A stretch of 6,321 nt of DNA from a virus. Taxonomy: Duplodnaviria; Heunggongvirae; Uroviricota; Caudoviricetes. Position numbers and translations under genes: made by a program. Shown here piece after piece: positions 3,689 through 6,314 of the stretch; the stretch's first letter is position 1, and every line of letters starts with the position of its first letter. The DNA is taken from the IMG/VR virus record IMGVR_UViG_2675903396_000007. The stretch is one strand, 5' to 3'. The notes under the pieces were generated by a model. That model made no database searches. It was not told the origin of the DNA and saw only the letters and a program-made list of their open reading frames with translations.

Positions 3689-3891
3689 AACCTCACTCCC
3701 AGCGGACGACGGCGACGCCGGGTTGTCCCCAGTACCGACTCCGCATCATTGATCGCCCGGTTAAGCTCATCCAGAGAAGCCGCCGTATATTCAATTCTGC
3801 GACCATCTTTCTGGACAGACACCACCCGTTTACCGGTTAATAAATCAAGGCGCGCCTGACGCAGCGCCTGCAGTTCAGCGACTGTAACCAT
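3685..3891 (-). CDS. W: Head-tail joining / head completion protein, lambda gpW-like
   Basis: ORF-track 68 aa, MVTVAELQALRQARLDLLTGKRVVSVQKDGRRIEYTAASLDEL...RRRRPLG, versus recalled lambda gpW [43 protein letters not shown]...QRRRGPAG. Same length class; GGAGGAG Shine-Dalgarno 5 nt upstream of the ATG at 3891. Confidence 0.9.
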   Translation of the reverse strand: MVTVAELQALRQARLDLLTGKRVVSVQKDGRRIEYTAASLDELNRAINDAESVLGTTRRRRRPLGVRL

Positions 3892-5584
3892 TCACTCCTC
3901 CGGACAGCTTCGCTGCCAGTTCTTTCAGGGTTGGCCGGGTCGTCTCTTCTTCCCGGGATTTTGCCAGTACAGCCAGATCAAGCTGCCAGCGTTGCACGGA
4001 CACACGTAATGCCGCGTAGGCATACACCAGGCAGTCCAGCGCTTCGTTACGCCGCTTTTTGTTATCCCACAGCAGACGCATCTTTCCTTTTTCCCACTTC
4101 TCCACCAGCTCTTCCGCCACCAGTTGCTGCGCCTCTGTCTGCGAAAAAATCTCCGGATCATCAGGAAAACGGATGGCATACGACGTGGCTTCATCCGCAG
4201 GCGTGGGATCGGCTTTCATACGGGCATAGAGAATTTCTTTTGCGGTGTCCGTTCCCACTTCACACAGATACACGCCCCGCTGATTGCGGGTTTTCGGCAT
4301 GGTGATCACCGGCTTGCCATAGACAGACGCGCCTTTTACCGGCAGCACCCGGAAAACACCGTGTTTTTTTGATCTCTGATAAACAATTTCACCATCGATC
4401 CCCCCGGTGTCCCAGCAGACACGGGAAATAGTCATTTCGGTGCCATCCGCATGGCGGTATTTTTTGTTGATCGCCGCATCCACACGTAACAGCGTCTCTT
4501 CCTCATCGGGACGCCCCATAATGATGATTTTATCCACCAGAAAGGCTTCCTCTCCCGGAGCCCATCCCCAGACATACATCTCAAAACGGTTTCGCTGCGA
4601 GTCAATGCCCGCCGTCAGATAAACCACCCGGGAAGGCACCGCAGCCGTGTAACGCACAACCTTATCCATCAGTACCTGGTGATCGAGTTTTTCGCCCACG
4701 GCCTCTTCCCAGGTCTCGCCCAGCGTGGTGTTCACAAAGGTTTTCAGGCCGTTGGGATCTTTCAGTGCATCCAGCCAGTCATAGACAATCTGTACCCAGG
4801 TGGTGAACGGACTGTACGCCGTCCAGATATGGAACGTGATGGAGCGCGGCGGCGGAATTTCATCACCCCGGGCGCTGAAAAACGTCAGACCGTCACGGGT
4901 CCACATGCCCGTGTTTTCACAGATCCACCGCCCGTTGCTCTGGTCCAGTTCAGACTGATGGATCACGCAGCCATGATGTTCACAGAGGTAGAAAACACTT
5001 TCAGGGCTGTCCTTCTCCCATTTAAGCCCAAAAGGCGTGGACTCATCGCCAAATTTCAGATACTGCGCCTCCCCACAGTGCGGGCAGGGCACATAAAAAC
5101 GCATAAAATGCGCCGACTCGTTAGCGGCTTTTTCGATCTGGCAGGTGCCTTTGATTTTAGGCGTCGAGCCGCGAATGGATTTTGGCCACACCGACCCCTC
5201 AATACGCTTATCCCCCAGCAGGGTTGGCGAGCCCTCTTTTTCGACATCCGGCTCGAACGAGGAAAGTTCGTCATAGCAGACCACGTCAACGGATTTTTCA
5301 CGGTAGTTTTTGGCGGCAGCGCCGCCCAGGCACCAGAAACCGACGCCCGATGAAAAGCGTTTCAGCGTGAGAGTATTGTCACGATGTTTACGACCCAGCC
5401 ATGGGGAAAGGTCTTTCAGGCATGGCACGTTCCGAATCGTCGCCTCCACGTGAGACTTCATAAAATCTTCAGCGGCAGAATCCGTGGGCTGAAAAAGCAG
5501 ACTGTTTCGGGATTTATGCTCAATAAAATACCCGACCACCCCCAGCAACATCTTTGTATAGCCAACACGGGCAGATTTAATCAG
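3875..5584 (-). CDS. A: Terminase large subunit, lambda gpA-like; 5' end missing (interrupted by the N-run), C-terminal about 569 codons intact
   Basis: ORF-track 606 aa, but residues upstream of the Ns are a frame artefact. From LIKSARVGYTKMLLGV (Walker A-like region, immediately 3' of the gap) to the stop, the protein is colinear and highly similar to recalled lambda gpA (KSARVGYSKMLLGV, KKHRDNTLT.KRF, GFWCLGG.AAKNYREKSVDV, SPT.LGDKRIEGSVWPKSIRGSTPK, HFMRF.V.CPHCGE.QYLKFGD, FYLCEH, HIWTAYSPFTTWVQIV, FVNTTLGETWE, LTAGIDSQ, VWGWGPGEE, ISR.CWDTGGID, YGKPV, WD.KKRRNEALDC). Confidence 0.95.
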   Translation of the reverse strand: MIKSARVGYTKMLLGVVGYFIEHKSRNSLLFQPTDSAAEDFMKSHVEATIRNVPCLKDLSPWLGRKHRDNTLTLKRFSSGVGFWCLGGAAAKNYREKSVDVVCYDELSSFEPDVEKEGSPTLLGDKRIEGSVWPKSIRGSTPKIKGTCQIEKAANESAHFMRFYVPCPHCGEAQYLKFGDESTPFGLKWEKDSPESVFYLCEHHGCVIHQSELDQSNGRWICENTGMWTRDGLTFFSARGDEIPPPRSITFHIWTAYSPFTTWVQIVYDWLDALKDPNGLKTFVNTTLGETWEEAVGEKLDHQVLMDKVVRYTAAVPSRVVYLTAGIDSQRNRFEMYVWGWAPGEEAFLVDKIIIMGRPDEEETLLRVDAAINKKYRHADGTEMTISRVCWDTGGIDGEIVYQRSKKHGVFRVLPVKGASVYGKPVITMPKTRNQRGVYLCEVGTDTAKEILYARMKADPTPADEATSYAIRFPDDPEIFSQTEAQQLVAEELVEKWEKGKMRLLWDNKKRRNEALDCLVYAYAALRVSVQRWQLDLAVLAKSREEETTRPTLKELAAKLSGGVNGYSR

Positions 5585-5640
5585 NNNNNNNNNNNNNNNN
5601 NNNNNNNNNNNNNNNNNNNNNNNNNNNNNNNNNNNNNNNN
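5585..5640. other. Run of 56 N: assembly or scaffold gap of unknown true size
   Basis: Directly visible. By analogy with lambda the missing stretch should encode the last dozen or so Nu1 codons and roughly 70 N-terminal gpA codons, i.e. considerably more than 56 nt. Confidence 0.95.
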
Positions 5641-5642
5641 AG

Positions 5643-6119
5643 TAAATCCGGTAATTTATCCCCTGCCCGCGCACACTGATTTGCCCCCTTAGCAATAAGG
5701 GTTTTCAGATGGTCAAGATGGCGCGGTGTTAAATCAGGAAACTGTCGCTGCATGGATAAAGGGATGGAATCAAGCGTACTGGATAACGCCATTGCCAGCT
5801 TACTGAGGGCAAAAATACAGAACCCGGTGTCAATAAGTTTTCCTTTTGACACCTCATTTTTTAACTGCTGTGTAACAGCCTGTTCTGCTGTCAGTTCCCA
5901 TCTGGCAATAAGCAATTTCTCCTCATAGTCGTCTTCGCTATCGCCATCAGGCACATCGTTTTTACTTCTCCTCAGATACGATATGTAAAAATCGCGCCAG
6001 GCATCCAGATCCAGTTGCCCTCGCTTATTCGATATCGGGGCACCCGGCAATTTCTGCAATCTGCGAAGCTGGCGATCGGTCAGACTTAAATGCCTGGCAA
6101 CTTCAGTCTGCGTAGCCAC
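5643..6119 (-). CDS. nu1: Terminase small subunit, lambda Nu1-like; 3' end missing (runs into the N-run)
   Basis: ORF-track 180 aa, of which the first 159 residues are real sequence. C-terminal half aligns with recalled lambda Nu1 (TGFCIFALSKLA....LD.IPLSMQRQFPDL..RHLDHLK versus TAFCTFVLSRIA....LDGLPLSVQRRFPELENRHVDFLK). N-terminal region resembles the Nu1 winged-HTH segment. GTG start at 6119 with GAGGTGAGGA immediately upstream and an in-frame stop 1 codon upstream. Sits directly downstream of cos, as in lambda. Confidence 0.88.
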
Positions 6120-6154
6120 TCCTCACCTCGCAAAAACTCTCACCTCACAATCAC

Positions 6155-6270
6155 AACAAAACCGGTCATGTCCGGTTTACATGTCTGTTTTTTGTTCATG
6201 TCCGGTTCACAGAAGACCTGTTTTTATATTTTTCATATAGTTAACTTGAAGAGAAACCGGACATGGATCC
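6155..6270. promoter_or_regulatory. cosB-like terminase small-subunit binding region: three copies of an 11-bp element flanking an AT-rich spacer
   Basis: CATGTCCGGTT at 6167..6177 and 6197..6207 (direct) and its reverse complement AACCGGACATG at 6255..6265 (inverted), with a 47-bp AT-rich spacer (6208..6254) between the second and third copies. This mirrors the lambda cosB layout cosN-R3-I1(IHF)-R2-R1-Nu1. Assignment as R sites is inference. Confidence 0.6.
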
Positions 6271-6302
6271 CGGAAAATTTTCATAAATAGCGAAAACCCG
6301 CG

Positions 6303-6314
6303 AGGTCGCCGCCC
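6303..6314 (-). other. cosN: 12-nt cohesive-end site (GGGCGGCGACCT on the minus strand)
   Basis: Reverse complement of 6270..6321 reads GGTTACGGGGCGGCGACCTCGCGGGTTTTCGCTATTTATGAAAATTTTCCGG, which matches the lambda cos junction as I recall it (right-end ...GGTTACG, then left-end GGGCGGCGACCTCGCGGGTTTTCGCTATTTATGAAAATTTTCCGG). Confidence 0.85.

Follow-up and report, generated by a model that had tools for sequence, protein, structure and literature searches.

The cos regions of phages lambda and 21 are the closest described counterparts of the locus reported here. In both, R3 lies a short distance from the cohesive end, an inverted R2 follows with an I1 element between the two, and R1, in the same orientation as R3, precedes the gene for the small terminase subunit (TerS) (Table 1). 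The pairing between the small subunit and cosB decides which DNA a cos phage packages, and a residue 20/24 code separates lambda from phage 21. In Gifsy-1 (NC_010392), the cos is likewise of the lambda kind and holds three copies of R, with the middle one inverted. A further element of lambda, I2, is found at about bp 18–50 (PMC4856287). The number of R sequences varies between phages, N15 having a single R3 and Monarch three R sequences (PMC4669245).

Sequence context

The window, which is the whole stretch of DNA that was analysed (6,321 nt), shows the left end of a lambda-like phage in reverse complement. Its - strand encodes, in order, the small terminase subunit, the large subunit, gpW, the portal protein and an S49 protease. 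Window positions were converted to phage coordinates by setting phage bp n to window position 6315-n, with bp 1 at the cohesive end. The 12 bases of the cohesive end (GGGCGGCGACCT) are the same as the annotated nicking subsite of phage 21 (OL657228), and the identity between lambda and the window extends through bp 45, beyond which the two diverge. A prophage of Escherichia coli O157:H7 LSU61 is 99.9 % identical to the whole window.

The small-subunit gene starts at a GTG at position 6119 (phage bp 196). Just upstream of this start there is a 12 bp direct repeat (6122–6133 and 6139–6150, 17 bp apart), the copies of which read TTGCGAGGTGAG and TTGTGAGGTGAG on the - strand and each include a Shine-Dalgarno-like GAGGTGAG. 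L002 and L003, both close relatives, also have this repeat. At 5585–5640, a run of 56 N breaks both terminase genes, that of the small subunit at its 3′ end and that of the large subunit at its 5′ end. Between the same flanks, matching genomes are 165 bp longer, so the run stands for about 221 bp, and the listed ORFs at 5577–6119 and 3875–5695 are artefacts of reading through it. The full TerS sequence of 169 aa was taken from an E. coli O145 RM9872 prophage that is 100 % identical over the matched stretch.

Table 1. Features of the cos region in the window, annotated sites of lambda and phage 21, and simple sites in distant relatives
Feature	Sequence	Position	Strand	Phage bp	Remarks
cosN cohesive end	GGGCGGCGACCT	6303–6314	-	1–12	identical to lambda bp 1–12
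A+T-rich segment between cosN and cosB	contains TTATGAAAATTTTC	6266–6297	-	18–49	lambda I2 equivalent
R3 equivalent	CATGTCCGGTT	6255–6265	-	50–60	forward in phage orientation; core TCCGGTT at bp 54–60
I1 equivalent, IHF-like core	TTTCATATAGTTA (bp 72–84, TAACTATATGAAA)	6231–6243	+	72–84	two mismatches to the consensus
A/T tract adjoining the IHF-like core		6221–6230			
R2 equivalent	CATGTCCGGTT	6197–6207	+	108–118	inverted relative to R3
Degenerate copy	CATGTCTGTTT	6180–6190	+	125–135	2 mismatches
Third exact copy	CATGTCCGGTT	6167–6177	+	138–148	R2 orientation
One-mismatch copy	CATGACCGGTT	6160–6170	-	145–155	R3 orientation; overlaps the third exact copy
TerS N-terminal DNA-binding domain		5955–6119	-		residues 1–55; presumed reader of the repeats
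Remaining part of the TerS gene within the window		5641–5954	-		3′ end lost in the N-run 5585–5640
Lambda sites				R3 50–65; I1 74–86; R2 109–124; R1 151–166	R2 inverted; small-subunit start at 191
Phage 21 sites (OL657228, annotated)				R3 50–65; I1 74–86; R2 107–122; R1 150–166	R2 inverted; start at 189
Aeromonas phiARM81ld simple cosB	CATTTCCGGTTCCGGTT	L025 1–79			
Pseudomonas LPPA33 simple cosB	GTTTCCGGTTCCGGTT	L026 100–165			
E. coli vB_EcoM-705R4 simple cosB	TATTTCCGGTTCCGGTG	L027 560–601			
Azospirillum MAG, degenerate related motif	GGTTCCGGTTCC	L006 1140–1165			upstream of gene

Repeats downstream of cosN

The original prediction described three copies of an 11 bp motif, with the inverted one nearest cosN. 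Three exact copies of CATGTCCGGTT were indeed found (Table 1), and none elsewhere in the 6,321 bases of the window. The 47 bp stretch that it called AT-rich, between the two exact copies nearest cosN (6208–6254), has 72 % A+T against 45 % for the whole window. Two further copies had been missed, one with a single mismatch and one with two.

When placed in phage coordinates, the first two exact copies fall at the positions of R3 and R2 in lambda and phage 21, and the third falls roughly at that of R1. The assignment of the repeats to cosB thus agrees with their position. As in lambda, an R element begins at about bp 50 next to a lambda-type cosN, and an inverted R2 is found about 58 bp downstream, within the expected spacing of about 57–59 bp. 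Lambda and the window also share an IHF-like core sequence between R3 and R2 (lambda bp 74–86, window bp 72–84) and a small-subunit gene start about 190–196 bp from the end. However, the R sequences differ (CATGTCCGGTT in the window, CTGTCGTTTCC in lambda), and the marks of lambda specificity (CGTTTCC, with T and C at bp 56 and 59, respectively) are not found in the window. The original prediction had noted the difference from lambda cosB, and it extends to the R sequences of phage 21, Gifsy-1 and the N15 type.

The third site is the point at which the window departs from lambda and phage 21. Their R1 is in R3 orientation, whereas the third exact copy in the window is in R2 orientation, and no exact copy constitutes an R1-type element, that is, one in R3 orientation before the small-subunit gene. 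The one-mismatch copy is in R3 orientation and within about 6 bp of lambda and phage 21 R1 (bp 150–166). Of the relatives, only L002 and L003, which belong to the close E. coli group, retain it. The degenerate copy is not conserved even in these two, which are 93–97 % identical, and is probably non-functional. Together, the third exact copy and the one-mismatch copy make up a near-palindrome (AAACCGGACATGACCGGTTT, 6159–6178) with a 7 bp stem and a 6 nt loop, followed by TGTTGTG. This palindrome is limited to the E. coli group.

The small terminase subunit and its domain classes

The Pfam Phage_Nu1 match on the window TerS covers residues 49–150 only, leaving residues 1–48 outside it. A Pfam search with the N-terminal 64 residues and a PDB sequence search with TerS found nothing significant for the DNA-binding domain. 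By structural alignment, the predicted fold of this domain is that of the gpNu1 winged helix-turn-helix, with 16 % identity, and the domain in the window is about 15 residues shorter than that of lambda gpNu1. The putative recognition helix spans residues 15–22 (DRQLRRLQ).

An alignment of TerS homologues revealed three N-terminal domain classes attached to a shared central and C-terminal part. Class A is that of the window, class B is N15-like, and class C includes lambda, phage 21 and Gifsy-1. In the mosaic TerS of L004, L022, L024 and L032, the three DNA-binding domains look unrelated, with a junction near residue 60–65. All class-A TerS loci carry xxxxTCCGGTT. At the same positions, class C has CGTTTCC (lambda), CATGTCGG (phage 21) or CAGATCC (Gifsy-1), and class B has GGTTGTTGTT, found in an N15-type Salmonella prophage. 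The N15-type R is read by a different N-terminal domain (MAVLLNKSDMASSIGIS...). The N15/Monarch R GAGGTTGTTGTT was present in the class-B control loci L022 and L023 but not in the window. Since the controls of other classes carry other repeats at the same positions, the repeat tracks the DNA-binding domain. The original prediction had paired a distinct packaging specificity with a divergent Nu1-like protein, and the change of repeat type with N-terminal domain class points the same way. On these comparisons the packaging specificity of the window would be distinct from those of lambda, phage 21, Gifsy-1 and N15/Monarch.

Gifsy-1 was suspected of belonging to class A because the cohesive end of L019 agrees with the differences published for Gifsy-1, and was rejected when its TerS proved to be lambda-type and its R to be CAGATCC. 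The Salmonella class-A locus L019/L020 has, at bp 1–12, the cohesive end GGGCGGCAGCGT, which is identical to that of Gifsy-1, and comparison of L019/L020 with Gifsy-1 indicates that cosN variants and cosB/TerS classes occur in differing combinations.

Conservation in class A

The class-A cos regions compared have 60–80 % TerS identity and come from Klebsiella, Salmonella, Citrobacter, Enterobacter, other E. coli and metagenomic contigs. A search for the motif upstream of related small-subunit genes found the core in all those examined, which were 14 enterobacterial lineages and three distant phages. Cos regions of phages with related small subunits do carry the motif, as the original prediction required. 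In the enterobacterial lineages, the core TCCGGTT is invariant at bp 54/55 in the forward orientation (14 of 14) and the inverted core AACCGGA is invariant at bp 108/109 (14 of 14), although these lineages share descent and the counts do not represent independent events. Across nine lineages the majority fraction was 1.00 for both cores, 0.48–0.59 for the flanks and 0.79 for the IHF-like element, and it reached 0.95 at bp 28–42 of the I2-like segment.

The third copy was found at bp 138 in the window group and in L015 (Enterobacter) and L029. In L007 (Klebsiella) it was at bp 151, and its orientation was that of R2 in every case. It was absent from eight lineages (L009, L011, L013, L017, L019, L021, L028 and L030). 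By analogy with R1 the third copy is likely to be an accessory site, though this role is tentative because the copy is R2-oriented and missing in these eight lineages.

In the distant class-A phages (Aeromonas phiARM81ld, Pseudomonas LPPA33 and E. coli 705R4), the site is simple. It consists of ATTTCCGGTTCCGGT at about bp 52–68, which is about 10–20 bp ahead of the gene, and neither an inverted partner nor an IHF-like site accompanies it. Class A therefore occurs in a complex form (R3-I1-R2, with or without the third copy) and a simple form with a single R3, which parallels Monarch and N15, respectively. A scan of genome contigs with a class-A N-terminal profile found one locus, in an Azospirillum MAG. 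The class extends from prophages of enterohaemorrhagic E. coli (EHEC) to the Aeromonas and Pseudomonas phages and probably to the Azospirillum prophage, where the motif is degenerate (GGTTCCGGTTCC).

Within class A, the fourth position of the motif varies together with residue 20 of TerS. Where residue 20 is Arg, as in the helix RQLRRLQK, motif position 4 is G (ATGTCCGGTT), and where it is Asp or Asn, position 4 is T (TTCCGGTT). This pairing held in 17 of 17 lineages, three of which were checked as predictions, but the pattern may represent one evolutionary event because the Arg/G group is probably a single clade. It may be taken as a lead, short of a demonstration. The residue 20/24 code of lambda and phage 21 offers a parallel.

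An IHF-like element in the spacer

An IHF-type bend in the spacer had also been proposed, and a putative site was found at the position homologous to I1. Its core (TAACTATATGAAA) has two mismatches to the consensus WATCAANNNNTTR, a level of match that is common in A+T-rich DNA. The I1 core of lambda (TAACTTAATGTTT, bp 74–86) also has two. In the other class-A lineages, the consensus YAANNNNTTGATW is matched at bp 72–84 with no mismatches in L007, L009, L019 and L021 and with one in L011, L013, L017, L028, L029 and L030, compared with two in the window group. In L015 the best match was found outside bp 72–84. An IHF-like site is present at bp 72–84 in 13 of the 14 enterobacterial class-A lineages. 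This suggests that IHF may bind here.

What the repeats may bind

Taken together, positions 6155–6270 very probably constitute cosB, the docking site for TerS of a lambda-like cos phage in E. coli. The cosB appears to be of the known R3-I1-R2 design, because this layout is conserved in class A and the other classes carry other repeats. We infer binding of TerS to the R copies from these comparisons. The TCCGGTT core is short and GC-rich, and could also be recognised by other helix-turn-helix proteins. It is nonetheless highly unlikely that the repeats bind another protein, for example a phage regulator or host factor, in place of TerS, as the repeat switches with the TerS domain class and homology is maintained in cosN, the I2-like segment, TerL and the remainder of TerS. 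In addition, the repeats are at positions annotated as TerS sites in phage 21, and immediately upstream of the TerS start the three distant phages share no sequence other than the motif.

The inverted copies could alternatively act as a nucleic-acid structure, either a terminator or attenuator of the late transcript or a cruciform, with 6159–6178 as an intrinsic terminator. A terminator-like scan did find AAACCGGACATGACCGGTTT and then TGTTGTGATT on the - strand (6178–6159), as well as a second weak hairpin at 6273–6257, and single-strand folding paired R3 with R2 (z = -3.3). However, it is the sequence of the cores that is conserved, and no compensatory changes were seen. Within a lineage, motif positions 1 and 3 vary independently between R3 and R2 (GATG versus CATG, CATT versus CACT), which would break pairs. 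The hairpin at 6159–6178 is absent from L029, L015 and L007, where there is only a single copy, and its T-tail (TGTTGTG) is poor. Late transcription also has to pass through cos into the head genes. A structural role is accordingly very improbable.

The initial guess that the element is simply the cosB of phage 21, with a specificity already characterised, was rejected by direct comparison with phage 21 records. K-12 prophages were considered as stand-ins for phage 21 and were unsuitable, as the cos at Qin nohA is of the lambda type and XL10-Gold carries a truncated DLP12 copy. The window and phage 21 have the same architecture and spacing, their 12-base cohesive ends are identical and bp 1–45 are 91 % identical. 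The phage 21 R sequences (AATCGTGTCGGTACTT, TTTCATGTCGGACCTT and TTTCATGTCGGGCCTT, with the specificity motif TCATGTCGGnCCTT) also have the string CATGTC..GG in common with CATGTCCGGTT. Over bp 46–190, however, the ungapped identity is 24 %, which is the random level, and the window motif has one extra C and is 3 bp nearer cosN. The window, phage 21 and lambda carry C, G and T, respectively, at bp 56 (for phage 21, 'GC bp 56 of R3-21', PMC4669245), and at bp 59 the window has T and phage 21 has G. The N-terminal domain of phage 21 gp1 is lambda-type, whereas the window protein has MATQTEVARHLSLTDRQLRRLQK and begins MATQTEVARHLSLTDRQLRRLQKLPGAP, and the recognition helices differ (RTIERWQSQ at residues 17–25 of gp1, RQLRRLQKL at residues 16–24 in the window). 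The window R CATGTCCGG (6255–6265) resembles the phage 21 CATGTCGG (L032 53–60, 107–122 and 150–166) despite the differing DNA-binding domains. This likeness may be convergent, because the ancestral class-A form of the motif is CATTTCCGGTT / CATTTCCGG. Identity with phage 21 cosB is thus extremely unlikely.

Although defective lambdoid prophages are numerous in E. coli and A+T-rich spacers give rise to short repeats by chance, it is scarcely credible that the repeats are fortuitous or inert relics of a dead prophage, as three copies of any 11-mer arose in only 2 of 20,000 shuffles of the non-coding stretch 6120–6302, which with the conservation of the cores across genera while flanks drift excludes chance, the downstream terminase, portal and protease ORFs are intact, and the PhiR12 phages carry the same cos.

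Discussion

The assignment of this stretch to cosB draws on its anatomy, its positional homology with the lambda and phage 21 sites, its conservation, the co-occurrence of repeat and domain class, and the predicted fold of the TerS DNA-binding domain. A mechanism can be proposed by analogy with lambda. The winged helix-turn-helix domains of a TerS dimer would bind the R3 equivalent (bp 50–60) and the inverted R2 equivalent (bp 108–118), and IHF would bend the A+T-rich spacer at the I1 equivalent (bp 72–84) so that the R3 and R2 sites face each other. The resulting complex would anchor the large subunit about 50 bp away at cosN for the staggered nicks, with the third copy (bp 138–148) serving as an accessory site.

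The cosB stretch was found in 1142 of 5426 complete E. coli genomes (about 21 %), with up to four per genome, and was never annotated. Near-identical copies are found in prophages of O157:H7, O145 and O103 strains. A cos 97 % identical to this one is present in the PhiR12 phages, for which GenBank gives E. coli K-12 and C as hosts, and this suggests propagation on these strains. A literature search for the PhiR12 phages returned nothing relevant, and one for the motif string returned unrelated primer and sequence matches only. Neither the R sequence nor the diverged DNA-binding domain was described in the literature searched, which is not proof of their absence from the literature.

It is possible, though we lean slightly against it, that the class-A domain (MATQxEVAxHLxLTxRxLRxLQK) and the TCCGGTT R represent a separate, experimentally uncharacterised family that has two sub-specificities via one contact. 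If this is true, it would predict cross-packaging, namely which lambdoid prophages of one EHEC genome are able to package DNA of the others or cos-bearing islands. EHEC strains have up to four copies of this cosB beside lambda-type cos sites, and the specificity class decides which prophages, defective prophages and cos-bearing islands each terminase can mobilise in them. The invariant 7 bp core and the pattern of Arg20 with G and Asp or Asn20 with T also lead to simple recognition predictions.

The accepted picture of lambda-like packaging is unchanged by this locus. The third site of the locus differs from the lambda and phage 21 plan both in its orientation and in being dispensable. Gifsy-1 shares with it a lambda-like cos and three R copies of which the second is inverted, but differs in its R (CAGATCC(G/T)TTC), its lambda-type TerS N-terminal domain and its cohesive end. 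Compared with these systems, the element is of an ordinary kind but apparently belongs to an undescribed specificity class. Its layout is the classic lambda one, whereas the recognition sequence is its own and the associated DNA-binding domain has diverged greatly.
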